From a virus: a stretch of 26,361 nucleotides of DNA. The notes under the pieces were generated by a model that saw nothing but the letters and a program-made list of their open reading frames with translations, was not told where the DNA came from and ran no database searches. Positions 382 through 15,778 of this stretch are shown piece by piece; the stretch's first letter is position 1; the number at the start of each line of letters is the position of its first letter. The position numbers and the translations under genes are program-made. The DNA lies in the IMG/VR virus record IMGVR_UViG_3300002036_000001, positions 72,506 through 98,866 of that record, one strand, 5' to 3'.

Positions 382-2013
382 TTAATCTTCTTCTTCAATT
401 ATATCGTCTACTACTATAGGTTGAGGAGGAATATTAGGATAATTATCTAACGTAAATCCACCTATACTTTTATTTACTTTTCTGATATAGTAGTCATAAG
501 GGTTAACCTTTTTATCTGATGAATACCTATTCCAATTAATATACACAGTAGGATTAAATTCTTCTTCGTTTCCTACTAAATCTCCTGAACATGTTTGATT
601 ATATATATATTTATTTCTAGAATCTATATAGTCCAAAACATTTTCTACTAATCTAGGATTTTTTATTTCCTTATATAGTATATTATTAAAATTTATTTTA
701 CTACAAAAGTTTGTACTTGATAATATACTATTTTGGTTATTCTTAATAAAATTAACAATACTAGTACATACAATAAAATAATTCATTATTTTATTAATGT
801 CATAAGTAGGAGTATGAATCCTAAACTCTATTGTTTGTTTATTTCCAAATAATAAAGGAATTAAATTAACCCAATAATATCTAGTTTTTATATTCCATTT
901 ACTTGTACCTTCTGGATCAGAGGGATGAGAATGTATATTACTTAGATCTCCTCCTTCATTTTGGTAACTTCGACCCATTGATAGAAAACTATAAAGAACT
1001 TCAAAGTTTTTCTTTATATTTTTATTATCAATAACCCCATCCATCTTTAAAATAGTAGAATTAATAGGTAAAGGTTTAGTATAATGCTTTCTTTTTACCC
1101 CATAATTATATTTTTTATATAAAGGAAAAAGTTCAAATATAGAATCTTGTATTACTGTTAGTACTCTAAAGGCAGCTATAAAAAACTCTTCTGTTCTAGG
1201 AATATTCCCTATATGAAGATGCAAAGCACATGTTTCATCATATAAAGTCCTCTTTTTCAGTTGCTTTACTGTATCTACAATAGTTTGTACTCCCTTTTTT
1301 CCTTCTAGAGGAATTGTTACATATTCTAATCCTTTTACACTACCATCTCTTAGAGGAATTAATCCTAGATTTTTAACAATTCTAGGAGGAACCATTCCTT
1401 TAACTGTTTCAAATTCTAACCCAAATGTAAGACCTTTTGCAACATCTCCATATTTTTTTACTGCCTCAGTATATTTAGGAGAGTAATTAGAATGATAATA
1501 TTCAGAAGCTGAATTAGTTTTTCCTTTAGAATCGTATGATAAAGTATTTTTATAATTTAAATCACAATGCTTTATATCTGTGAATTCTATAGTATCTAAA
1601 GAATATTTATTATAATAATTTCCTGATGAAAGTTGTTCTTTATAAATAGTTCCTTTAAAAATTTCATTATCAAAACATTGATAAGTATTTCCATCAATAT
1701 GTACTAGTACTAAATCCTCTTTTTCATATTTTTTAGAAAAACTTCCAAATATAGGATTATTCGATTTATCAAAACCAATTACTCCTTTAACAACCATTAA
1801 AGATTTATCTTTAATAATATATTTTTTTATTCTATTATCAAAATAAATATATCCAGTATGTTGTTTATAATACTTATCATTTATTTTATAACAATCTCCT
1901 GAATTTTCTATATTTACATCTCCAATTTTATAAAATTCTCCTCTTATTGTTCTACATTCTTTTTTTGGAAAAGTTTTTCCACTTACTGTAACTACAGTTT
2001 TTATATCTTCCAT
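382..2013 (-). CDS. putative amidoligase (COOH-NH2 ligase fold)
   Basis: Motifs TFGLEFET, DGSV..LEYVT.PL, CALHLHIG, RY.WVNL, TIEFRIH. Confidence 0.85.
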   Translation of the reverse strand: MEDIKTVVTVSGKTFPKKECRTIRGEFYKIGDVNIENSGDCYKINDKYYKQHTGYIYFDNRIKKYIIKDKSLMVVKGVIGFDKSNNPIFGSFSKKYEKEDLVLVHIDGNTYQCFDNEIFKGTIYKEQLSSGNYYNKYSLDTIEFTDIKHCDLNYKNTLSYDSKGKTNSASEYYHSNYSPKYTEAVKKYGDVAKGLTFGLEFETVKGMVPPRIVKNLGLIPLRDGSVKGLEYVTIPLEGKKGVQTIVDTVKQLKKRTLYDETCALHLHIGNIPRTEEFFIAAFRVLTVIQDSIFELFPLYKKYNYGVKRKHYTKPLPINSTILKMDGVIDNKNIKKNFEVLYSFLSMGRSYQNEGGDLSNIHSHPSDPEGTSKWNIKTRYYWVNLIPLLFGNKQTIEFRIHTPTYDINKIMNYFIVCTSIVNFIKNNQNSILSSTNFCSKINFNNILYKEIKNPRLVENVLDYIDSRNKYIYNQTCSGDLVGNEEEFNPTVYINWNRYSSDKKVNPYDYYIRKVNKSIGGFTLDNYPNIPPQPIVVDDIIEEED

Positions 2014-2026
2014 TTTTAAGAATTAT

Positions 2027-3892
2027 TTAGTTTGTTTTTTTCTCAATTTCTATTATTTTACTTGTACTTTCTATAAAATTAGATAATAGTTTCATAACAG
2101 AATCTCTTTTTTCATTAGATTTAAAATTAGATAATCTTTTTATTACAATAGGAAACAATTGATAAGGCTCTAATAAAGTTTCTTCTATTAATTTTTCTAA
2201 TCTATCATTCTCTATATTATCTTTTTTAGTATTTTCTTCTTTTTCTAAATCATCCACTACTGTGTCTAAATTTTTACTAGCAGGGAGTTCTATTACTTTT
2301 ACATCATCTATTTTTGCTATATTTGTTATTCTAGTACAATTACCTTTATCTATTTCATATATTTTTTCAGCATTTAATGGACTAATAATTCCTGTAAATA
2401 ATTCTCCTCCATAGTATATACTTTGTCTATTAGAATCCTTATACTTATAAGACATGTCTATAATAGGATGAACCGTACATAAAGATAAAGAACTAACATC
2501 AAAAGGCATTCTCTCTTTTTTTAAACTTATACAAGCATCAAAATCTAACTGAGTTGATATTCTTGCTCCTTCAAATATATAAAAGAAATATCTTGATATG
2601 TCTGTTATTTCTTGATTCTTATTATGAACAAAGGGTATAAATCCTTTTTTAGAATTTTTTTTATTTTTTTGAAAACAATTATTCTTAAAAGGAATATTAA
2701 CTAAAGACCAAAATGTATTTTCTGCTTCTTTAGTATTATCTCCTAATTTATAAAATCCATAATTAGTTATCCAAGCATATACTCCTGTAATAGTATGTCC
2801 ATTTCTCCAATATCTTAATTTATTAAAATAAACTTTACCTTTATAATCTTTTAGATCTTTTAAAGTCTTTTCGTTATAAATATTCTTCTTATCAGATAAA
2901 CTTGAAGAAGATATATTGGTAGAAGTACCTTTACTCTTATCAAAATTTATAGTATCATACCCACTACATGCATCATAATTAGGATATGTTCTACCATAAT
3001 TTTGATGATAATTTTGGTATCTATAAGTTTTTAAATGATGACAGTTTTTTCTACTTATACTAAACTTAGTAGCTTTTTCTACATTACCATCTACTATCCT
3101 ATAGACTACATTATGTGAAAACTCACCTATAGTATCTGGATTTCCTCCTATAGCTATTAAACTATCTTCTATAGAAGAAATATATAAACTATTTCTTGTT
3201 TCCTTATAATAAAATAAAGGTCTTTCTTGATATATCACATCTCCTTTATCAGTATTATATTTTTTAGAAGCACCATGGTAACAGTAAATTACATTAGGTT
3301 CTCTAGTATCTGTAAAAACTAATGCAGCAGCTCCGTTATATTTACTAAGAACCTTATAATTACTATTTTTATAAATACATTCTAATAGTATTTCACTATC
3401 TATTTTGTTCCTAGTATTACCTTTTGATAAAGTTTGAACTTCATCTACATTAAAATCTTTTGCAAGATCTTTATAATTTAAAAGAGATCCATTATGCACT
3501 CCTATAAAAGAAAAACCATCATTATTAAACCCGAATCCAAATGGATGTGCATTATCCATTGTATTTGCTCCCACTGTACTTTTTCTAGTATGACCAATAA
3601 CTACAGGAAAATTAATAGGTTTATCATAGTCAATATTAGATAAGAAATCTCTATATGCTTTTTCTTTATCTACTCCTAAATATATGTCACCATCTACAGT
3701 AATTCCACAAGAATCTGTTCCTCTAGTTTCATTCATTATTCCTAGAATATCCAATTTTTGTTTATTGAATTTTTTAGTAGATTTACCTGCCCATGCAAAT
3801 ATTCCACAATTTAATTGATTTTCTTTAACTCCAAAAATAATTTTTCCTAAAGTATCAATTGCTAATAATATTAATATTATGCTAATTATCAT
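2027..3892 (-). CDS. class II (Ntn) glutamine amidotransferase with N-terminal hydrophobic extension
   Basis: CGIFA, RGTDSCG, GHTRKST, NAHPF, HNG, DSE, RPL motifs. Confidence 0.88.
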   Translation of the reverse strand: MIISIILILLAIDTLGKIIFGVKENQLNCGIFAWAGKSTKKFNKQKLDILGIMNETRGTDSCGITVDGDIYLGVDKEKAYRDFLSNIDYDKPINFPVVIGHTRKSTVGANTMDNAHPFGFGFNNDGFSFIGVHNGSLLNYKDLAKDFNVDEVQTLSKGNTRNKIDSEILLECIYKNSNYKVLSKYNGAAALVFTDTREPNVIYCYHGASKKYNTDKGDVIYQERPLFYYKETRNSLYISSIEDSLIAIGGNPDTIGEFSHNVVYRIVDGNVEKATKFSISRKNCHHLKTYRYQNYHQNYGRTYPNYDACSGYDTINFDKSKGTSTNISSSSLSDKKNIYNEKTLKDLKDYKGKVYFNKLRYWRNGHTITGVYAWITNYGFYKLGDNTKEAENTFWSLVNIPFKNNCFQKNKKNSKKGFIPFVHNKNQEITDISRYFFYIFEGARISTQLDFDACISLKKERMPFDVSSLSLCTVHPIIDMSYKYKDSNRQSIYYGGELFTGIISPLNAEKIYEIDKGNCTRITNIAKIDDVKVIELPASKNLDTVVDDLEKEENTKKDNIENDRLEKLIEETLLEPYQLFPIVIKRLSNFKSNEKRDSVMKLLSNFIESTSKIIEIEKKTN

Positions 3893-3895
3893 TTT

Positions 3896-4696
3896 TTATA
3901 AATTTATTAATTCTTTTTTTAATTTTTCAATTTTTGCTATTAGTACAATTGCTTTTTCTTTATTATTTAAATTAATACATTCTTCTATATCATCAGAATA
4001 ATTATTAATTATATAATTTATAACACCTGTATTTACTAATTCAATAGCTTCCATGGTTTTATTAAAAGCCCATTTCATAAGTTTATCATTTACTATCCAA
4101 AAATTTGATAAACTTCTATATTCTACTCCATAGTTTTTAAATCTAAAACTACCAGCTTTACCATACATTTCTTTTCTTCTATCATCTTTGTCCAAATTAA
4201 TAGATTCTAATCCAAGTACAGCATCCATAGCATATATAATCTTTTCACTTACTTCTTGAGAAGGATTATCATACCCTATATGAATATGTCCTCCACAAGT
4301 CCTTAATCTAGTATCACTACTAGGGGCAGAGTTTATAGATTTTGAATAAACATTAAAATCAGGCTCACATCCAAATTGCTTTGCTTGAGGAGTTTCTAAA
4401 AATCTTTGATCTAATTCTGCTGATGCACTATAATTTAAAGAACATCCTTGTAATTTAGAAAGAATTTCTAAATGATTTTTTACAAAATTCATATTGGTTA
4501 CAAAAGATTTTACATCAACACAAGCAGGAATATTAAATTCTACCATAACATTATCTTCTTGTATAGCATGTCCTTCTTCACTAATTTTTTTAGGTTCTAA
4601 TTTTGTACCTCCAATTAATCCTTCTGCTGAAATTATTTCTCCATTTTTTTCAAGAAACAATTCAGGATCGCTTCCTATTTTTATATTTTTTAACAT
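3896..4696 (-). CDS. phiEco32-like COOH-NH2 ligase type 2
   Basis: IGSDPELFL, QEDNV..EFNIP, FGCEPDFN, RTCGGHIHIG, RR..YGKAG.FR...YGVEYR.LSNFW. Confidence 0.9.
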   Translation of the reverse strand: MLKNIKIGSDPELFLEKNGEIISAEGLIGGTKLEPKKISEEGHAIQEDNVMVEFNIPACVDVKSFVTNMNFVKNHLEILSKLQGCSLNYSASAELDQRFLETPQAKQFGCEPDFNVYSKSINSAPSSDTRLRTCGGHIHIGYDNPSQEVSEKIIYAMDAVLGLESINLDKDDRRKEMYGKAGSFRFKNYGVEYRSLSNFWIVNDKLMKWAFNKTMEAIELVNTGVINYIINNYSDDIEECINLNNKEKAIVLIAKIEKLKKELINL

Positions 4697-7791: not shown

Positions 7792-8382
7792 CTAAATAGA
7801 CTCTGTCCAATCTTCTGTAGCTCCAATAATAGTATCTGAACCTGATATACCATCATTAGATGGTGCATCTTCTGTTATTTTAGTTAACAGATCCATATTA
7901 TTAGGAATAAGTCTAGTATTTTCAACAGCTCTTTCAATAAAATTGAAATAACGTAAACCTAAAAATCTACCAGGTCTATTCTTAGTTCCATAAGTTACAT
8001 ATACATTGAAAACTTTTCCTTCTACATTGTCCTTAATAAGACCAAATAAGACATCTACAGCTTCTTTAGTTGTTTTTACTTCTGGAAATACATAGTCAGC
8101 TCCTAAAACTGCTTTAGCAATATGAAGAACTCTAGACAATTCTTGTCTTTCCCTTTTTTGGTTATACTCATCAGGGGATGATGGATTAGGTTTAAAGTAA
8201 TAAAAACCTTGATTAACTGAACCACCAGCATCACTAGTAGCAATTAATTTATATTCAGGATAAGTATCTGGAGATCCAGCTTGTTTTTTTTCAACAGAAA
8301 TTTTAACATTTCTTACTAATCCTGCATTCCCACCATTAAAAATGGTATTTCCTTCAAATTCTTTTCCGTTTAAATTTATCAT
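7792..8382 (-). CDS. putative single-stranded DNA-binding protein
   Basis: Lies between recombinase-like ATPase and primase, acidic tail ending TEDWTESI, followed by a terminator. Confidence 0.55.
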   Translation of the reverse strand: MINLNGKEFEGNTIFNGGNAGLVRNVKISVEKKQAGSPDTYPEYKLIATSDAGGSVNQGFYYFKPNPSSPDEYNQKRERQELSRVLHIAKAVLGADYVFPEVKTTKEAVDVLFGLIKDNVEGKVFNVYVTYGTKNRPGRFLGLRYFNFIERAVENTRLIPNNMDLLTKITEDAPSNDGISGSDTIIGATEDWTESI

Positions 8383-8393
8383 TTTATATTATA

Positions 8394-9167
8394 TTATTTT
8401 TTATTAATAAAAATTTTAGACCAATCTACTTTTACATTATTAGATTCGTCTGATTCTGCAACTACAATTTCTTGACCTTTTAAGTGATTACTTCTAGCTC
8501 CACATATTAAAGTATCAGAGGAAGCAAAATTAATTATTGTTTTGTTCTTCTCTCTATATAAATACCCTATTGCATCCACTTGTGAACATAATATTGCAGC
8601 ACTTTTACCAGTAAGGTCTAACCCTCTCTCATTCATTTCTTTACCTTCTTTTTCAACCAATTTATCTTTGACATGTCCTAATATAATTAAGGTGTCACAA
8701 ATTGATTCTAGCTCTCCTAAAACCATTGATAATGCCATTCTTGTAAATCTATATCCAGCTCCATTTGGAAGGGTTGTAACATCTGTTCCAATCCAATTTC
8801 TTCCCATAGGAGTATCTTTATATAGTTTTTTAGCTAAAGGAAGTACAACATCTTCTAGTGCTGTTACAGTATCTAAAGAGATGTATTTATATACATACTT
8901 TCCCCTTTTTTTATTTTCTTCCTTTATTTTATTTATCAAAGCCTTTAAAATAACTATAGGTAATTTATCTTGCTTTTCTGCTTCTGTTAGTACATCATAC
9001 TTTAAAGCATTTACAAAATGAGAACCTTTTTCTAAATCAATTGTTAAACAATTATCTAATTCAGAAATTATAGTAGTTTTTCCCATCTTAGGTAAACTAA
9101 ATATTACCATAGATTTAGGATTTATTCTACTTGCTTTTTCTTTTTCTTTCGGTAACTCTATATTCAT
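8394..9167 (-). CDS. AAA_24 / Sak4-like P-loop ATPase
   Basis: Walker A SLPKMGKTT, IDLEKGS, Walker B ISLDTVT, GAGY, ILGH, DAIGY. Confidence 0.85.
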   Translation of the reverse strand: MNIELPKEKEKASRINPKSMVIFSLPKMGKTTIISELDNCLTIDLEKGSHFVNALKYDVLTEAEKQDKLPIVILKALINKIKEENKKRGKYVYKYISLDTVTALEDVVLPLAKKLYKDTPMGRNWIGTDVTTLPNGAGYRFTRMALSMVLGELESICDTLIILGHVKDKLVEKEGKEMNERGLDLTGKSAAILCSQVDAIGYLYREKNKTIINFASSDTLICGARSNHLKGQEIVVAESDESNNVKVDWSKIFINKK

Positions 9168-9720: not shown

Positions 9721-10042
9721 TATTTTTTAGGTTTTTATCAATAAATCTATCATCCATGTCTTTTCTAAATAAAAACATATATGACAGAAACATTGCATTA
9801 CATAATATATGTCCTACATGAGCTAATTTACTTTCTTTATCTTTGTTTTCTCCATCTATAAAAGATATGAGATGTCTCATAAGGCTCTCACATATTTCTG
9901 AATATTTTAGTCCTTTTTTCCAATTATGTGAATCATATTTCTTTGCTCCAAACATTAGAACCTTAACCATAGGCTCTAATGCTCTGAAACTTGTTAAGGA
10001 CCAATTTAATTTATTTTTATTATCTCTAGTTCCTATCTCCAT
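9710..10042 (-). CDS. dATP/dGTP diphosphohydrolase domain protein (DUF5664-like)
   Basis: KL.W.L, VLMFGAKKY..HNWKKG, SLMRH, GE..D.ES.LAH.GH..CN.MFL. Confidence 0.85.
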   Translation of the reverse strand: MEIGTRDNKNKLNWSLTSFRALEPMVKVLMFGAKKYDSHNWKKGLKYSEICESLMRHLISFIDGENKDKESKLAHVGHILCNAMFLSYMFLFRKDMDDRFIDKNLKNNED

Positions 10043-10997
10043 TTATTCTCTTTCTAATACTATTAATAAAATTTTTAACCTTGTTTATTCCTATTAGGTC
10101 ATTAGATAATGGAAGTTCTTTGAAAAAATTAACAGCTCCATCAAAATATAAAGGACATATTGTTCCTCCTCCACCTTGTCTACTTGCTAAAATTTCTAAA
10201 AATCTTATATTATCTCGAAAAAAAGTAACATCATAACCTTGATATTCTTTAATTTCATGTCTAAAAGGACTAAAAAGCCCTAAAATAGTATCTGCATCTC
10301 TATGAGTTAATTTACAATCACCTAGTCCATCCATTGATGGTTTTAATTTGTTTGATCTGAAATTATCTAAACTCTCTTGAGAAGCTGCTTGTTGTTGAAT
10401 AACTACTGGTATATAGTTAAATTTATTTCTTAACCTAATTAAATAATTAGAAGATAATTCTACTATAGAAGCATGTAGACCTAGTTGAACTCCTCCTCTT
10501 CTTTCAGGAGAAATTAAACTAATATGATCTATGATAACCATGACATATTCTTCCTTATTATCAGGTTCATACCAATCATCTATTTCCTTTTCTACTACTT
10601 CACCAGTTTTATTATTAACAAAAGGTACTATTTTTTTATGTTGTGTACCATTATTTAAAGCATATTCATTTACAAATTTAAAAATTCCTGTTGGATTTCT
10701 TATATCATCTATGAATTCTACAATCTCTTCTATTTTATCAAAATATGGTTGATATTTTTCAATTAAAGTTATTGTTTTTTCATCTAATACTCCGCTTTCT
10801 CTAGTACTAGTTAAATCTTTAGGAGAAATTCGTACACCTTCCTTCTCATAAAGAATATTAGAAAATGCTGATAACATTTTCTGCTCCTTAGACATTTCTA
10901 AGGAAAAATAAAATATTTTTAATTTAATATTTAGTTTCAAATCTATAACCCTTTTTATAGCGTTATATACAAATAACGAATCTGTTATTTGAGTTTT
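10026..10997 (-). CDS. dnaB: DnaB-like replicative helicase, exon 3 (KTQITD... to stop)
   Basis: Starts with the KT of Walker A; YFSLEM, VIIDHISL, QQ, GLGDCK..HRDAD, SRQG. Immediately preceded by the intron terminal G at 10998. Confidence 0.92.
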   Translation of the reverse strand, partial: KTQITDSLFVYNAIKRVIDLKLNIKLKIFYFSLEMSKEQKMLSAFSNILYEKEGVRISPKDLTSTRESGVLDEKTITLIEKYQPYFDKIEEIVEFIDDIRNPTGIFKFVNEYALNNGTQHKKIVPFVNNKTGEVVEKEIDDWYEPDNKEEYVMVIIDHISLISPERRGGVQLGLHASIVELSSNYLIRLRNKFNYIPVVIQQQAASQESLDNFRSNKLKPSMDGLGDCKLTHRDADTILGLFSPFRHEIKEYQGYDVTFFRDNIRFLEILASRQGGGGTICPLYFDGAVNFFKELPLSNDLIGINKVKNFINSIRKRINGDRN

Positions 10998-11010
10998 CAA
11001 TTTTGTTACT

Positions 11011-11565
11011 TTAAAATCTTTTTACACCTTCTTTAATTTCTTTAGATAAATATCCCATACCTTTCAATATATTATATAGAGAATATTCTCCAACTCCTTT
11101 GTTATTCCATTCTTTAATAGAATCGCTATAATTATTTACTAATACTCCAAATCTATATTGAGACTTTAGAAGAATTATAAGAGTTGTAATAGATATTTCT
11201 TTTTTCTGAAATTTATCTATTGTTTTATTATCCCAAGTATGTACTACCCATTTTTTAATATCTGGACAAAATATTATAGCAAGTCTTGTCTTTGTTATAT
11301 TTAATTCTATTAATACTTTAATAGCTTTACAAAGTTCTGAAAAACTTATTTTTATACCTTGTGTTAGTAATACTGAATAAATATCTCCAAATGATCTAGC
11401 TTTTCCACTTGAACAAGTTCTTTCTGATACGTTTGTTCCAGATTCGTTAGACTTGCTAAAAGTGGCTGGAAATCCATAAAAATCATTGTAAAGCCTTTGA
11501 AGATATAATAATAAAGGTTCACTTTTTTCTTTTCTATATTGTTTTCTTAAATATAATTTTTTCAT
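11011..11565 (-). CDS. hypothetical protein in loop L9.2 of intron 2
   Basis: 184-aa ORF closed by perfect 10-bp stem UUAAAAUCUU (11572-11581) / AAGAUUUUAA (11011-11020). Confidence 0.8.
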   Translation of the reverse strand: MKKLYLRKQYRKEKSEPLLLYLQRLYNDFYGFPATFSKSNESGTNVSERTCSSGKARSFGDIYSVLLTQGIKISFSELCKAIKVLIELNITKTRLAIIFCPDIKKWVVHTWDNKTIDKFQKKEISITTLIILLKSQYRFGVLVNNYSDSIKEWNNKGVGEYSLYNILKGMGYLSKEIKEGVKRF

Positions 11566-11583
11566 TTTTTTAAGATTTTAAGA

Positions 11584-11994
11584 TCAAGTTATTTCTACTT
11601 GATTCTGAAATTTATTATAATATGATTTTTCTAATATCTCTATTATTTCTTTTTCTTTATTATACTCGTCTGTATTATATTCATTAGGATTAAATTTGTA
11701 AACATTATCTATTTTATCTATTACAAATTTCCAATGTCCTGTACCTGGAGTAGCATTTTCAAATACTAAAGTATCTACATTACCACAATACAGACAATTT
11801 AAGTAATTTTCCCCTAATAAAGTCATTATTTCTGCATTTATTTTATCAGAATTTACTTTATCTTCAAATAAGTATTCATGTATGTAATCTAAAGTAACTC
11901 CTGTATATAAGTCTTCGCAAACTGTATCCAATACTTCTAAATATTTTTCAGAGAAATATTCTTTTAATTTTTTATTTATTTCTTTACTGTTCAT
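11584..11994 (-). CDS. hypothetical acidic protein in loop L9 of intron 2
   Basis: 136-aa ORF within stem CUGAAA (12007-12012) / UUUCAG (11605-11610); last codons form hairpin P9.1 (11583-11603). Confidence 0.78.
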   Translation of the reverse strand: MNSKEINKKLKEYFSEKYLEVLDTVCEDLYTGVTLDYIHEYLFEDKVNSDKINAEIMTLLGENYLNCLYCGNVDTLVFENATPGTGHWKFVIDKIDNVYKFNPNEYNTDEYNKEKEIIEILEKSYYNKFQNQVEIT

Positions 11995-12031
11995 ATTAAT
12001 TTATTTTTTCAGTTCGGACTGTTTCATTAAC

Positions 12032-12373
12032 CTAATAATTACTATAAGGAAATAATACTCCATATACATCACATTTCTTTCTAGAGAGTGTGTCTCCAGA
12101 TCCTGTTTTGTGATAATGTGAAATTAGATCTACTATTTCTTCATATTTTAAATTTAAATAATTACCTTCATAATATATTCCATTTTTAGGTCTTTCCTTG
12201 TCAGTCTCTACACCGTTTTGTAGTAAATTTTTAGCATATTCTTTTTCAGATTTCCAATGTGAAGGATATTTTTTATTATAAGCTTCACTAAGTTTATCTA
12301 AAAAATAATTTAATATGTTAATCAATTCACTATCAAGTGACGGCACGAGATTATCTTTTATATTTTTTTCCAT
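12032..12373 (-). CDS. hypothetical protein overlapping the catalytic core of intron 2
   Basis: 113-aa ORF; DNLVPS encodes the P4'/P6 strand, GVETDKERP encodes P6'/P7/P3'/P8, stop lies in P8'. Confidence 0.6.
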   Translation of the reverse strand: MEKNIKDNLVPSLDSELINILNYFLDKLSEAYNKKYPSHWKSEKEYAKNLLQNGVETDKERPKNGIYYEGNYLNLKYEEIVDLISHYHKTGSGDTLSRKKCDVYGVLFPYSNY

Positions 12374-12777
12374 AAGTATAAATGTTGTAGTTTATTATTA
12401 TGTCTAGGATTTTTATAACTAATTATATCTTTAAAACCAACTTCTAATAAAGCCTTAGAAAAAGGATTATCCACATAAGTACTTCCTACAACTGTTTGAA
12501 TCATTCCTATATCACTAGTGAAATAAGAATGATTGGCATTATCAGGCTTTAATTGCCTTTTTTTTAATTTTTCTTTAAATTTTTCTAGTGTTTTTACTAT
12601 ATTTTCTATTTCTTGGCATGTAGTAGATTTCCAATCATGTAGTATGTATGATCCACATCCTGATGGATTTTCTTTTAGTTTAAAACTTACTAAAAGATTT
12701 TCTCCATTTATTTTATGTAATTCACTTACTTGTAAATAATTATGCCATTTTCCTTTTTCTATTAAACTTACTTTCAT
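12358..12777 (-). CDS. putative GNAT-like protein in loop L5 of intron 2
   Basis: 139 aa; P.GCG..IL and ALLEVGF...SYKN; enclosed by P5 AUCUU (12785-12789) / AAGAU (12353-12357). Function inferred. Confidence 0.7.
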   Translation of the reverse strand: MKVSLIEKGKWHNYLQVSELHKINGENLLVSFKLKENPSGCGSYILHDWKSTTCQEIENIVKTLEKFKEKLKKRQLKPDNANHSYFTSDIGMIQTVVGSTYVDNPFSKALLEVGFKDIISYKNPRHNNKLQHLYLWKKI

Positions 12778-12854
12778 TTTATATAAGATTTTCCTCGTTA
12801 GCTAATATTTCTATTAACCCTCCTGTAAGGAGATTCGGATTTTTAGTTATTTTT

Positions 12855-13496
12855 TTATAAACGGTGATATACTTTTATCATATTTCCAGAATTAACATTT
12901 TTATAAGAAAATTGAAGACTAAACCCTAATCTTTCTACAAAATTTATCGCAGATCTCTGCTTATGAGATAAGTGAGCAAGTTTTGCACAACCAATTTCTT
13001 TTAAACATTCTTTTATATAATTTATTTCCTCTTCTGTAAGAGTTATTAATACAGAATGTATTTTAGGAACCTCTTCAAAACCATATAATATCATACATCC
13101 ACAACAATCTGGATGTGGTTTAGTAGAAAATAATCTAATAGGTTTATTATTAACACTTACAAAAGATTGTACTCCATATTCTTTAATATATTTTGTATTA
13201 ACTTTAGTTAAAAAATAATCATGAGAGCTGATATGTGAATTATTTATTTTTTTAATAAAAAGTTTTTCTTTTTTTTGTATTTGTGTATTTCCCTTTACTA
13301 TTTCTAAAAGAGTTATTTTTCCTTTTTCTAAATCATAAGAATTGAATCCATATATTTTAGAATATAGAATACTTCCATTAAAATTAGGAGGTCCTATCTT
13401 ATCTTGAAAAAAACTATAATAATTTCCTCTTTTTCTTATTACTCCTTGATATTTTTTACCTTTTATTTTTAATGTTACAAAATCACCTGTTTTCAT
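12855..13496 (-). CDS. putative GNAT-like protein in the loop of a P2.1 stem of intron 2
   Basis: 213 aa; PDCCGCMIL and AINFVERLGF...SYKN; enclosed by AGUUAUU (13521-13527) / AAUAACU (12845-12851). Function inferred. Confidence 0.7.
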   Translation of the reverse strand: MKTGDFVTLKIKGKKYQGVIRKRGNYYSFFQDKIGPPNFNGSILYSKIYGFNSYDLEKGKITLLEIVKGNTQIQKKEKLFIKKINNSHISSHDYFLTKVNTKYIKEYGVQSFVSVNNKPIRLFSTKPHPDCCGCMILYGFEEVPKIHSVLITLTEEEINYIKECLKEIGCAKLAHLSHKQRSAINFVERLGFSLQFSYKNVNSGNMIKVYHRL

Positions 13497-13564
13497 TTTT
13501 TATATTTTTATATTTTTTATAATAACTTTACCATAATTGTTACCAATTACAGGGGCAAAAATCT

Positions 13565-13573
13565 ACCCACTTT
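13565..13573 (-). CDS. dnaB: DnaB-like helicase exon 2: 9-nt micro-exon AAA GTG GGT (KVG)
   Basis: Preceded by G, ends in U, and restores Walker A TANS-KVG-KT in frame. Confidence 0.9.
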
Positions 13574-13611
13574 CGTTTATATTCCATAAAGTTCGTAACT
13601 ACTTTATGCGT

Positions 13612-13740
13612 TTAATCAATTTTAATTTCTGTTAAATTATCAACAGTTATAGATGCTCCATTTATAAACTCTATTATAAATTTATCACCATCTTCGTAAA
13701 TTTTTACTTTATGTTTATTTTTGTAAATCCCCACTTTCAT
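13612..13740 (-). CDS. 42-aa ORF in loop L9.1 of intron 1
   Basis: MKVGIYKNKHKVKIYEDGDKFIIEFINGASITVDNLTEIKID; A-rich leader; enclosed by 11-bp stem 13754-13764 / 13610-13620. Confidence 0.55.
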   Translation of the reverse strand: MKVGIYKNKHKVKIYEDGDKFIIEFINGASITVDNLTEIKID

Positions 13741-13909
13741 AATTTTATTTTTTATTAATTAAACTGCTATATATTTCTATATAGACTGGACTATATCTTC
13801 ATCTCACTGAGATGCCCTCCGCTTCCAATACCATTAACTTGTATTGTACGTGCTTTATTGCACTAGTCTCTGAACCTTAATTTAATCTTGGCTGCTGATT
13901 GTCATATAT

Positions 13910-13935
13910 AAAAAAAGACACTATTAAAGTGTCTT
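13910..13935 (-). terminator. terminator-like hairpin within the P5 extension of intron 1
   Basis: AAGACAC-UUUAAUA-GUGUCUU then UUUUU, about 40 nt after the endonuclease stop. Confidence 0.4.
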
Positions 13936-13976
13936 AAATTATACTTAGATTTTCCAGCAATTCAAAGGGTAATCAT

Positions 13977-14687
13977 CTAGATGTCACCATCTAGCGTAGC
14001 TTTTATTATTAAATATTTCTTTTTAAATTTCCTTTCAGTTTTAATACCTTTTGATATTTCACTTGGAAAGTAACCAAAATATTTTGCACAATCTTGTAAT
14101 GAATTAAAAACTTTATATACTTCATTTGTATTAATATTTTTAACTATAACTTTTTTGCACATATAAGAATTATCTTTTTTAGATTTAACATAAGGATTTA
14201 ACGATTTTTTATAATCTAATGACCATAAATACCCTCCTCCTTTATTATAAGTTCCATTTAAAAATCTACAAATTGTAGATTGACTTATATTATTATCAAG
14301 ACAAGCTTGTTTTATATAATCATATTTTTTAATAAATGTACCATCTAAACTATATTGATATATTTCTTTACCTGTAATTATATTATTAACCACATCTTTT
14401 ATGAAGTTAAATTCAGGTTTTAAATTATTAATATAAAATTGTTCTCTTTTTATAAGAATATTTTTATCACAAAATTCTAATATAATATATATAAAATTTT
14501 TAGATTTATTTTTATTCCAAGAATTCTGTAAATAATCATTATGATGTTTATTATTTCTTAACATCATTTTATGATTAATAATTCTATCATAAATATTTTT
14601 TGAACTTCCTATATATTTTTTTTGGTTTTTTAAATTTAAAATACAATAAATACCTGATTTTTTACACTGTTTATTTAATTTTTGCAT
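13977..14687 (-). CDS. GIY-YIG homing endonuclease with NUMOD1-like repeats, in L1 of intron 1
   Basis: SGIYCI..L.N.K.YIGSS.N...R...H, REQFYI, PEFN; C-terminal IYQYSLDG.FIK.Y...A..GGY.W and FNSL..CA repeats. ATG 14687 preferred over TTG 14708, which is part of the promoter. Confidence 0.92.
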   Translation of the reverse strand: MQKLNKQCKKSGIYCILNLKNQKKYIGSSKNIYDRIINHKMMLRNNKHHNDYLQNSWNKNKSKNFIYIILEFCDKNILIKREQFYINNLKPEFNFIKDVVNNIITGKEIYQYSLDGTFIKKYDYIKQACLDNNISQSTICRFLNGTYNKGGGYLWSLDYKKSLNPYVKSKKDNSYMCKKVIVKNINTNEVYKVFNSLQDCAKYFGYFPSEISKGIKTERKFKKKYLIIKATLDGDI

Positions 14688-14705
14688 AAATTTTTTAATT
14701 TTATA

Positions 14706-14736
14706 CAAAAATACGAAATTTTTATGTAAATGTCAA
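14706..14736 (-). promoter_or_regulatory. Bacteroidota sigma-A-type promoter for the homing endonuclease
   Basis: TTG (14734-14736), 20-nt spacer, TATTTTTG (14706-14713) matching -33 TTG / -7 TAnnTTTG. Confidence 0.7.
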
Positions 14737-14771
14737 GTAATTAACGCATTATTTTTTGATTATTTAAAAAA

Positions 14772-14927
14772 ACTATTTGCTGTAACTAAATAATATTTAC
14801 CTTGTTCTATTCCTGGATTTTCATTTTCAAATCTAGGTAATCCCCAAGGTATACAATTAATTTTACCAGAAAGAATTCTATTCCTTCTTTTTTTTATGCT
14901 AGTTAGCACTCTATTAAATAAACTCAT
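14772..14927 (-). CDS. dnaB: DnaB-like helicase exon 1 (52 codons)
   Basis: MSLFNRVLTSIKKRRNRILSGKINCIPWGLPRFENENPGIEQGKYYLVTANS; typical pre-Walker A segment; ends in U. Confidence 0.92.
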
Positions 14928-14934
14928 TTTTAAT

Positions 14935-15543
14935 TTAATTTAATTTACTAGTCCAATCTTGGACTTCATTTTCTTCTATTTCATCTATAAATGCAGATAA
15001 TCTAGAAGATTCTTCTTTATTTCTATCTTGTTTGAATATAAAATAATCAGCTCTTTGTAAATAATGAAGATTTCTACCTTCTGTACTTAAATAAATATCT
15101 GCTGCTTTTAAAATATCTTCAAAAGTATATTCTGGATTTTCTTCCATCCATCTAGTTAACTTTTCTTTACAAGATTTCAATCCACCTCTTGCTCCTGCTT
15201 TTAATCCTTTCCATTTATCTCTAAATTCAGAAGCTCTTTTTTCTACCTCTTCACTTACTTTAGAAATAGATTTCTTTTTTACTTTCTTATTAGAGTATAC
15301 TAATGTAGAAAGATCTACTAAAGAATTTTTTATTAAATTTAATGATTTCTGTCTTAGTATTATTTCTTTTCCTATTTTTAATTGTCTTATTTTTATTAAT
15401 CTTTTCTTTTGTAAAATCTCTAAATCAATACTAGTATCTATGTAATCTTTATCAAGATACATAAAACTAATATATAAAAATTCATTAATAGTTACGTCAT
15501 TTTCTTCTAATTCCTTAAAATTTACTATTAACGATTTATTCAT
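14935..15543 (-). CDS. hypothetical protein, possibly replication initiator or helicase loader
   Basis: 202 aa between polymerase and helicase; function inferred from position only. Confidence 0.5.
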   Translation of the reverse strand: MNKSLIVNFKELEENDVTINEFLYISFMYLDKDYIDTSIDLEILQKKRLIKIRQLKIGKEIILRQKSLNLIKNSLVDLSTLVYSNKKVKKKSISKVSEEVEKRASEFRDKWKGLKAGARGGLKSCKEKLTRWMEENPEYTFEDILKAADIYLSTEGRNLHYLQRADYFIFKQDRNKEESSRLSAFIDEIEENEVQDWTSKLN

Positions 15544-15759
15544 TTATATTTTTTTAAAAATTTCATCCATACTTATAGAAAATTTATTAGGGTTTATTTT
15601 TAAATTTAAACTTGTTTTATAATTTTCAATTTCTATAATTGGAATAATTGTATTAAACTCTTCTTTTACTTTATTTTGAATATCTGAATTATCCTCTAAA
15701 TTATATGCACTTATTATTAAATCTATTATGAAAATATTTTCATTAAATTTTTTTATCAT
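15544..15759 (-). CDS. hypothetical protein
   Basis: 71-aa ORF abutting neighbours. Confidence 0.65.
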   Translation of the reverse strand: MIKKFNENIFIIDLIISAYNLEDNSDIQNKVKEEFNTIIPIIEIENYKTSLNLKINPNKFSISMDEIFKKI

Positions 15760-15778
15760 GTTTTTAAAATTTTAGTTA

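Follow-up and report, generated by a model that had tools for sequence, protein, structure and literature searches.

Two group I-type introns probably flank a nine-base exon in the ATP-binding loop of a marine crAss-like phage helicase

The window analysed here, 26,361 nucleotides of viral DNA (IMG/VR record IMGVR_UViG_3300002036_000001, positions 72,506 to 98,866), carries the phage's only DnaB-family replicative helicase gene on its minus strand, where every feature located below also lies. Very probably, this gene is interrupted inside its ATP-binding loop by two group I-type introns that leave an exon of 9 nt between them. Exon 1 (14772..14927; 156 nt, 52 aa, M...GKYYLVTANS) matches residues 1-52 of intron-free homologs in our alignment and ends on the T of AGT at 14772; if unspliced, its open reading frame (14927..14760) runs from GKYYLVTANS into FFK and a stop (TAA at 14762-14760), in agreement with the preliminary description, which had YYLVTANS followed by a stop three codons on. 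Exon 3 (10026..10997; 972 nt with stop, 323 aa) begins KTQITD, again as described, and opens with AAAACT (KT) at 10997 just behind a G at 10998. The K-V-G in the middle of Walker A (A-N-S-K-V-G-K-T) had been assigned to a 9-mer preceded by G and ending in U, and the micro-exon AAAGTGGGT (13565..13573, read from 13573 to 13565) indeed has a G at 13574 just before it and T as its last base. Joined in frame, the three exons (156+9+972 nt) give a coding sequence of 1137 nt and the 378-aa protein with TANSKVGKT that had been predicted, and the introns (1198 + 2567 nt) add up to 3765 nt, the ~3.77 kb proposed for this 4.9-kb locus.

The joined protein aligns without gaps to eight intron-free homologs at 69-72% identity. 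All eight read TANSK[VI]GKT at Walker A (an intron-free allele has AATAGTAAAGTAGGTAAAACA), and exactly three residues, K[VI]G, separate ANS from KT, the spacing on which the preliminary description had staked the micro-exon. In our gene, a match to the Walker A pattern [AG]xxxxGK[ST], namely ANSKVGKT, arises only once the three exons are joined. Annotated DnaB-family replicative helicases from crAss-like phages share 41-53% identity with exon 3, which, scored alone with Pfam DnaB_C, reaches 23.2 bits, under the cut-off of 27.

By its predicted anatomy, intron 1 (13574..14771; 1198 nt, placed by alignment and pair counts) is a classic group I ribozyme. Its guide GCUA (14000-13997) pairs with UAGU of the exon and is followed by P2 (13994-13977), the 5' strand of P3 (13969-13964), P4 (13959-13954 with 13898-13893), P7 (GACUA 13868-13864 with UAGUC 13793-13789), P9 with a GAAA loop (13784-13767), a covarying closing hairpin (~13608-13585) and, after a conserved gaatataaac, the terminal G at 13574. 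The full P2-P9 fold, which takes in the P3/P7 pseudoknot, has 12 helices and 67 pairs, with 98.2% of cells paired and compensatory change at 16 pairs; none of 500 shuffles reached it and slid controls were 26-43% paired. The P, Q, R and S elements are all present (aattgctgg, aatcagcagc, gttcagagacta and aagatatagtcc), P7 and P3' are separated by extra hairpins in the manner of IA-type phage introns, and the core is similar by BLAST to Staphylococcus phage introns annotated Intron_gpI as well as to other phage introns. P1 (UAGU/GCUA) occurs in all 5 distinct lineages and shows no covariation because the pairing is invariant; no obvious P10 was seen in intron 1.

The P1 loop of intron 1 holds an ORF (13977..14708) for a putative GIY-YIG + NUMOD1 homing endonuclease (Pfam GIY-YIG PF01541, E 4.5e-10; NUMOD1 PF07453, 1.2e-6; PHROG 314 homing endonuclease, 7.7e-16). 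Its longest version starts from TTG at 14708, its likely start being the ATG at 14687, and its final codons also encode the guide sequence and P2. The ORF is found in intron 1 of L022, L023 and L025 and is missing in L009 and L024. In phage T4, the td, nrdB and nrdD genes have group I introns that carry homing endonucleases, of the GIY-YIG or another type. Intron 1 resembles them in its P, Q, R and S elements, its GIY-YIG + NUMOD endonuclease and a stop codon that follows in frame shortly past the 5' splice site, yet it differs in that its endonuclease ORF comes after the 5' splice site and ahead of the guide and in that RF00028 gives no score. A further ORF of 42 aa (13612..13740) in the 3' tail opens with ATGAAAGTGGGG, a near-copy of the terminal G plus micro-exon; at this spot relatives have unrelated small ORFs or none. 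A second GAAAGTGGG (13738-13730), 164 nt upstream, is beyond chance and could act as a competing 3' splice site.

That Rfam searches (RF00028 for intron 1) matched neither intron, whether with the gathering score or with E relaxed to 10, might be taken to mean that the gene is dead, with intron 1 having recently disrupted it as a non-splicing insertion and another helicase serving the phage. We consider this very unlikely. The reading frame is open through all three intact exons, and intron 1 not only keeps its complete covarying ribozyme fold but is also found in ~15 of 120 exon-1 clusters and in several divergent lineages. Moreover, no second helicase copy was found in the 98.9-kb genome, whose completeness is estimated at 100%, and DnaB is named a core gene of crAss-like phages in the sections of PMC7886860 drawn on here.

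Intron 2 (10998..13564; 2567 nt) is assigned to the group I type from conserved blocks and covariation at 10 loci. Its predicted elements are the guide GCC (13556-13554), which pairs with GGU of the exon, P10 (U-run 13560-13557 with AAAA of exon 3), a P2 hairpin with a GUAA loop (~13551-13530), P4 (12798-12793 with 12350-12345; 6 bp), P6 (12344-12340 with 12216-12212), P7 (12208 and 12206-12202 with 12021-12016; 6 bp), P8 (12192-12188 with 12033-12029; 5 bp) and the terminal G at 10998. All 10 loci have P1 (GGU/GCC) as well as the intron-final G, and across these every cell of P4, P7 and P8 is paired. Covariation extends to P2 (strong), P4 (A-U vs G-C), P6 (GCC/GGU vs GUC/GAC), P7 (two positions), P8 and P10, the last with AAAAC/GUUUU in L019 as opposed to a compensatory AAAUC/GAUUU in phage phi14:2. 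P1, being invariant and only 3-4 bp long, has no covariation support, and P3 was not located: no covarying partner for it was found in the 10-locus comparison, the segment 5' of P4 making a local helix instead. The group I reading of the preliminary description thus gains support from a U-ended 5' exon with a G-initiated guide, an intron-final G and covarying P4/P6/P7/P8 in both introns. As cargo, intron 2 holds five ORFs (11011..13496) of 213 aa (13496-12855), 139 aa (12777-12358), 113 aa (12373-12032, reading through P4'-P8'), 136 aa (11994-11584) and 184 aa (11565-11011), in which Pfam and PHROG searches found no recognisable family or endonuclease domain.

The last bases of intron 2 make an in-frame TTG (11000-10998), at which gene callers begin exon 3; as the preliminary description had anticipated, the resulting calls are truncated, with helicases of 281-324 aa in the protein database and in the phi14:2 entry of RefSeq. 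Every relative has such a TTG or GTG directly before exon 3, and one could imagine a helicase in pieces, made unspliced as a 55-aa N-terminal peptide that associates with a 324-aa protein begun at this codon. We hold this to be highly improbable: the TTG or GTG belongs to a conserved intron end (...UUG) whose final base is the terminal G, Walker A would be left without KVG and its glycine, intron-free alleles are single ORFs and there is no intein or Hint domain for protein-level joining. Inteins and split inteins are known in the P-loop of phage and bacterial DnaB/gp41 helicases, where selfish elements target the same short, highly conserved ATP-binding motif as in our gene. Unlike these elements, which act at the protein level, the insertions described here have stop codons behind both 5' junctions and no Hint domain. 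An intein or split intein was rejected as an explanation, since stops occur 3 codons after ANS and 5 after KVG and since no Hint or intein family was found in any ORF.

To our minds, it is the comparative evidence across relatives that, at the level of sequence, decides the micro-exon question. Four allelic states were found at the helicase site, always with identical junctions: no intron (L007, L046), intron 1 only (L025), intron 2 only (L001, L002, L004-6, L019 and the cultured Cellulophaga phage phi14:2) and both introns (the window, L008/9, L023 and L024). With intron 1 alone, as in L025, the junction leads from ...aaG directly into AAAGTGGGAAAGACT (KVGKTQ), and in the relatives with intron 2 alone exon 1 ends ...AGTAAAGTGGGT; both splice junctions are therefore fixed independently of each other. 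Among exon-1 mini-ORF clusters (n=120), ~95 stop just past K[VI]G and ~15 just past ANS, and at least three different introns are inserted in P-loop codons among the relatives.

Taken by itself, the 10-base micro-exon motif (G-AAR-RTN-GGT) is no better than chance, with 1 match in the window vs 0.93 expected and at least one match in 57 of 100 shuffles. One might argue from this that the 9-mer is a chance match within one long insertion, an explanation to which we give next to no credence. What is beyond chance, as judged from the aligned relatives, is its position exactly between two independently conserved termini, the 3' one belonging to intron 1 and the 5' one to intron 2, and in single-intron relatives the 9-mer is contiguous with exon 1 or exon 3. 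Three other lineages show the same placement, their variants being synonymous or conservative (AAAATTGGT, AAAGTAGGT and AAAGTTGGT in L009, L023 and L024, respectively), and the flanking intron ends are conserved across the two-intron lineages, whose four micro-exons vary only where K[VI]G is kept (codons GTG, GTA, GTT and ATT). This pattern indicates that coding constraint acts on the micro-exon in four lineages, which in turn argues for its retention in the mRNA between two complete group I introns in one ORF. A search of contigs for this phage's spliced junction found none.

In the scenario we favour, two unrelated group I introns would have invaded the Walker A codons of a single DnaB-family gene, 9 nt apart, and the locus would be transcribed as one 4.9-kb pre-mRNA on which a ribosome entering either unspliced intron should halt within 3-6 codons. 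The 5' splice site of intron 1 would be set by pairing of UAGU in the exon with the guide GCUA, which lies ~770 nt downstream because the homing-endonuclease gene occupies the P1 loop, and two classical transesterifications would then ligate exon 1 to the first base beyond the intron-final G at 13574. For intron 2, the last 3-4 bases of the micro-exon (GGGU) would form P1 with the guide GCC(C), the adjacent U-run would form P10 with AAAA of exon 3, and the 3' end would be the terminal G at 10998. Since each intron needs only its own guide and 3-4 exon bases, the two reactions could probably occur in either order, and their product would be E1-AAAGUGGGU-E3, encoding the 378-aa helicase with an intact A-N-S-K-V-G-K-T loop. 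Alongside the observed junctions and folds, the 9-nt coding constraint and the independence of the two introns, we infer that splicing does take place, in free order and efficiently enough for replication.

It is conceivable that exon skipping or use of a cryptic 3' site dominates instead, and that the 9-nt exon is mostly lost, the products being TANS-KTQ without KVG or a join at the near-copy (13737) that would yield a ~94-aa protein ending in the 42-aa ORF. Skipping has been documented in Twort orf142, for its 23-nt exon, in Coxiella 23S rRNA, for an exon of 34 nt (PMC10136302), and in a Bastillevirinae polymerase gene (PMC11878797), and the second GAAAGTGGG is in frame with exon 1. However, a KVG-less helicase would be without the glycine of GK[ST], K[VI]G is kept in every homolog and the coding constraint in four lineages speaks against loss of the exon. 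In addition, the two introns, one with GCUA and the other with GCC as its guide, are not related to each other, in contrast to Twort, whose near-identical pair is proposed to cooperate (PMC10136302), and the near-copy is missing in relatives, all of which makes dominant skipping or cryptic splicing quite unlikely. Another option sees the micro-exon as a control point: as the exon is too short for both ribozymes at once, their reactions would be ordered or mutually exclusive and, with a decoy 3' site at 13738, would give full helicase, KVG-less helicase and a ~94-aa N-terminal fusion in a ratio that might time replication or cargo-gene expression. We think of such control as unlikely and keep to splicing in free order.

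Among known systems, the closest likeness is to tail tube gene orf142 of Staphylococcus phage Twort, which, as relayed in the portions of PMC10136302 and PMC11878797 used here, has three group I introns, the second and third of them separated by an exon of 23 nt (Landthaler and Shub 1999). There, too, tandem introns of the self-splicing type surround a very short exon that must stay in a phage protein gene. In contrast to our case, however, the Twort exon has 23 rather than 9 nt and, going by the same portions, its introns 2 and 3 are near-identical IA2 elements, whereas the two introns described here are unrelated, one of them is 2.6 kb long and multi-gene, the exon encodes the centre of Walker A and splicing is predicted from sequence. 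Published phage and bacterial precedents for short exons between introns span 23-34 nt (PMC10136302), and mini-exons (< ~4 codons) between group I/II introns are routine in mitochondrial genes, cox1 for example, of fungi and other organisms; these resemble ours in being 3-12 nt long, encoding conserved residues, being found by homology only and being routinely missed by gene callers (PMC10352661). Unlike these organellar exons, which are often maturase-helped, ours lies in a virus of bacteria, where transcription and translation are coupled. Group I introns have been reported in core replication and structural genes of crAss-like phages, the same virus order, and were traced via endonuclease domains in MCP, PolB, primase, ATP_43b and other gut-group genes; the excerpts of that report available to us make no mention of DnaB P-loop introns in a marine lineage or of a micro-exon (Yutin et al. 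2021, PMC7886860).

Seen against these precedents, what we describe is very probably a real 9-base exon in a marine crAss-like phage helicase, extreme in its kind but an instance of a known arrangement and no new mechanism, in which two autonomous group I ribozymes appear to share an exon far shorter than the documented 23-34-nt phage and bacterial cases. It means that a core helicase is systematically miscalled as truncated in an abundant marine crAss-like lineage, the cultured reference phi14:2 included, and that an exon of 9 nt is missed by any automated pipeline. The micro-exon and its pair of introns may offer a natural test bed for the minimal exon context of P1 and 3'-site choice, and for exon skipping by ribozymes. 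Finally, the ~15 nt that encode one P-loop emerge as a repeatedly hit target, in line with the rule that the best-conserved codons are where selfish elements settle.

The minus-strand helicase locus (14927-10026) lies in AT-rich DNA (~25% GC) whose genes are on the minus strand, the window being the final 26 kb of a 98,866-bp IMG/VR virus record with a CheckV completeness of 100%. That the gene is broken into three exons is confirmed, and all figures of the preliminary description are correct: a 55-codon ORF (14927-14760, minus strand) reads M...GKYYLVTANS and then FFK-stop, the last helicase base being the T of AGT (14772), a 324-codon ORF called from TTG 11000 to 10026 (minus strand) reads (M)KTQITD..., and the KVG between them is found as AAAGTGGGT at 13573-13565 (minus strand) with a G directly before it at 13574. 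Joined in frame, 14927-14772, 13573-13565 and 10997-10026 give 1137 nt and the proposed 378-aa product with ...TANSKVGKTQITD..., and the interruptions of 1198 nt and 2567 nt account for the claimed ~3.77 kb of intron. The spliced junction predicted for the window phage is ...AAUAGU-AAAGUGGGU-AAAACU...; a 45-mer across it had 0 matches among metagenome contigs, and our search for phage DNA near-identical to the window found none.

Searching with exon 3 retrieved 1598 relatives, most of 311-324 aa starting (L/M)KTQI and a minority of 370-381 aa. GKYYLxTANSK[VI]GKTQ[IV] is present in all of the long homologs, and an alignment of the joined 378-aa protein with eight of them needs no gaps (69-72% identity), so that exactly three residues (K[VI]G) separate ANS from KT, the length on which the proposed micro-exon had been staked. 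Intron 2 ends, in the window (10998-11000) and in all relatives, with TTG or GTG in frame with exon 3, and for this reason gene callers give helicases of about 316-324 aa with the (L/M)KTQI start, which bears out the expectation that automated annotation would truncate the helicase. Among relatives with a name, the nearest are replicative helicases of the DnaB family from crAss-like phages; that of Cellulophaga phage phi14:2 (Crassvirales, Steigviridae) matches best (53% identity). In this cultured phage (L026, NC_021806.1), intron 2 occupies 1717-4500 of the locus (about 12982-15765 of the record); g024 corresponds to helicase exon 1 (...TANSKVG and then RQICPIIW-stop), and g025-g028 are genes within the intron. 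The annotated DnaB, g029 (281 aa), is a truncated exon 2, which in truth begins with AAATCACAA (KSQ) at record position 15766. The annotation joins PolB from two pieces and leaves DnaB unjoined; the join from g024 to g029 is predicted to be ...AGUAAAGUGGGU-AAAUCACAA.... Elsewhere in the family, two short contigs with a full-length helicase (L042, L043) may be transcripts, and a more distant lineage (L014-L018, L020; 43-45% identity, P-loop intact) is interrupted by ~1.2 kb after ...IDHIGL, adjoining Walker B (about 5806-7001 in L014), a further site in this gene family taken by an intron or intein.

Taken alone, the micro-exon motif is no better than chance: 0.93 matches to G-AAR-RTN-GGT are expected per window, and 57/100 shuffles have the motif, so the case for a micro-exon rests on the relatives. 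Among these, four allelic states (intron-free, intron 1 only, intron 2 only, both) fix both junctions. Intron-free DNA reads AATAGTAAAGTAGGTAAAACACAA in contig L007 and AACAGTAAAGTTGGTAAAACACAA in L046. Loci with intron 2 only (L001, L002, L004-L006, L019, phi14:2) run through exon 1 to ...AGTAAAGTGGGT and then into agattttgcccc, the very sequence that follows the 9-mer of the window, and in L025, which has intron 1 only, the intron end ...gttacgttaattatagaatattaaG is directly followed by AAAGTGGGAAAGACTCAAATA (KVGKTQI). Where both introns are present (window, L008/L009, L023 (and L033), L024), 9 nt are flanked by ...gaatataaa[c/a]G and a[g/a]a[t/a]ttt(t)gcccc; they are AAAGTGGGT, AAAATTGGT, AAAGTAGGT and AAAGTTGGT in the window, L008/L009, L023 and L024, encoding KVG, KIG, KVG and KVG. 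The 9-mers vary only where K[VI]G is preserved - V and I both being seen in intron-free proteins - which is the signature of a translated exon. Comparison of these alleles supports interpretation of the 9-mer as a micro-exon between two group I introns.

One competing site had to be weighed. An exact second copy of GAAAGTGGG, resembling the terminal G plus micro-exon, lies at 13738-13730 (minus strand), 164 nt ahead of the genuine 3' junction of intron 1, and is beyond chance (0.07 expected per window; two copies in 0/100 shuffles). We rejected this copy (at 13737) as the true micro-exon: its last base is G and not U, ATT and not intron 2 comes next, and relatives lack it. In all lineages it is the 13573 copy that has a conserved hairpin and gaatataaacG before it. 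The near-copy begins a 42-aa ORF (13740-13612); in relatives the same loop is either without an ORF or encodes an unrelated small one (73 aa in L009, 55 aa in L025). Were 13738-13730 to serve as the 3' splice site, exon 1 would continue in frame as KVGIYKNK....

Of 120 exon-1 mini-ORF clusters in the protein database, ~95 stop a few codons past K[VI]G and ~15 directly past ANS; both insertions are therefore widespread, intron 2 being the commoner. A degenerate search for the two-intron junction pattern returned only the known lineages plus six chance matches without the GCCCC guide, and intron-1 core and junction patterns in IMG/VR matched the L008/L009 lineage only. A third, different group I intron is seen in contig L045 (gtagagactag ... 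gaagatatagtcc, ending ...acgaG before GTAAAACACAA, from comparison of L045 1-245 with L046 3160-3200); it ends inside the glycine codon of the same P-loop, and there is an allele free of it whose exon-3 protein is 100% identical. The tails of other exon-1 mini-ORFs (KVN-stop, KVLT.., KVKP and KKLY.., for instance) suggest further insertion points within the 15 nt of this P-loop.

By eye, intron 1 (14771-13574) has classical P, Q, R and S elements, and its core matches ~290 phage records, including features annotated as Intron_gpI in Staphylococcus phages. Our alignment of intron 1 copies from five distinct lineages (A1) supports P2 (GUGA loop), P3, P4, P5, P6, P8 and P9 (GAAA loop), a P7 with a bulge-flanked G-C pair that is A-U in L024, two additional hairpins separating P7 from P3', a feature of IA-type phage introns, and a strongly covarying hairpin shortly before the 3' end. 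The fold comprises 67 pairs, with 98.2% of cells paired and compensatory changes at 16 pairs; its values are reached by 0/500 shuffles, and pairing in slid controls is 26-43%. Exon UAGU base-pairs with the guide GCUA (14000-13997); no convincing pairing was found for P10. A GIY-YIG/NUMOD endonuclease ORF fills the P1 loop in the window, L022, L023 and L025, its last codons encoding the guide and P2; in L009 and L024 the guide sits 22 nt and 10 nt past the splice site. Ahead of the ORF lies a promoter-like TTGACA-17-TATTTT (14736-14708), and the P5 loop holds a terminator-like hairpin with U-run (AAGACAC...GTGTCTT TTTTT; 13915-13935, minus strand), seen in three aligned endonuclease-bearing copies (window, L023, L025) and missing from the aligned endonuclease-less ones (L008/L009, and also L024, which itself has an ORF there). 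Between lineages the ribozyme core is 84-91% identical and helicase exon 3 only 65-82% at the DNA level, which is compatible with horizontal spread, albeit with a contribution from structural constraint. A few kb upstream of relatives' helicase, the P element (aattgctggaaa) and the Q element (caatcagcagc) of intron 1 are matched again (L009 about 836-886; L021 about 2825 and 4503-4553; L005 about 778-820), suggesting that neighbouring replication genes contain group I introns related to it.

Intron 2 (13564-10998) is one element in ten loci, phi14:2 included, whose helices we read from conserved blocks scattered among the cargo ORFs. These are P1 (GGU/GCC; 3 bp, 4 in the window), P2 (a hairpin with GUAA loop and freely covarying stem), P4 (ACGRGG/UCYCGU; A-U in the window, G-C elsewhere), P6 (GCCGU/ACGGU; GCC/GGU only in L005, GUC/GAC in L023), P7 (G-GACUR/YAGUCC, with G-C/A-U swaps at two positions), P8 (RACCU/AGGUU) and P10, which pairs exon AAAA with a U-run beside the guide and shows compensatory change (AAAAC/GUUUU in L019 versus AAAUC/GAUUU in phi14:2); a conserved (G/A)UAACAAA motif precedes the terminal G. 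P3 was not located in the conserved blocks of the ten loci. Pairing of AUUAGCU with GGUURAU (upstream of P7') was rejected as it is broken in L005 and phi14:2, and AUUAGCU, its 5' strand, fits a local helix better: the segment directly 5' of P4 pairs with GGUUAAU and so closes ORF insertions in several relatives. Membership of intron 2 in group I is thus well supported but not complete. For both introns, Rfam (gathering score and E up to 10) gave no group I match, which we judge a failure of sensitivity owing to the ORF-filled loops rather than evidence against introns. The five cargo ORFs of intron 2 matched no Pfam or PHROG family. A 113-codon ORF (12032-12373, minus strand) reads through P4', P6, P7 and P8 and stops in the P8 3' strand (TAG 12034-12032), an overlap kept in L001, L009 and others, and L023 carries (8380-8535) a degenerate tandem duplicate of P5'-P4'-P6-P7 (aatcctatgctatcacttga ... 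aacggtgtagaaactgaaa) directly before the intact segment.

As to splicing, each intron would find its own 5' splice site through its own guide and 3-4 exon bases and would end in a G whose position is fixed by single-intron relatives. Stop codons follow the 5' junctions within 3 codons (intron 1) and 5 codons (intron 2), as is usual for phage introns. A split-intein ("fractured gene") reading was rejected: no Hint domain is present, and stop codons stand directly past the junctions. For Twort, a cooperative "one large ribozyme" route to exon skipping has been proposed (PMC10136302). Since the guides differ (GCUA versus GCC) and the two introns are unrelated to each other, such a route seems unlikely in the window helicase, and exon inclusion should dominate.

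Small exons between two group I introns are known from Twort orf142 (23 nt) and Coxiella 23S rRNA (34 nt), both with exon skipping, an outcome described as rare among group I introns (PMC10136302). The 9-nt exon is an extreme form of this arrangement; to our knowledge, all published cases checked from phages and bacteria have a longer one between their two group I introns. By organelle standards, however, it is ordinary, as mitochondrial mini-exons of < ~4 codons "occur regularly", their detection calling for dedicated software (PMC10352661). A literature text search combining group I intron, phage and micro-exon found nothing relevant; crAss-like phages are intron-rich, and the available part of the source describing this makes no mention of the DnaB P-loop site (PMC7886860). 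A six-frame Pfam DnaB_C search of the window phage's genome gave no match, missing even the known gene; being uninformative, it was replaced by a protein search, which found no second helicase copy. Given this, and with DnaB being a core gene of crAss-like phages (PMC7886860), replication of the phage plausibly depends on both splicing events.
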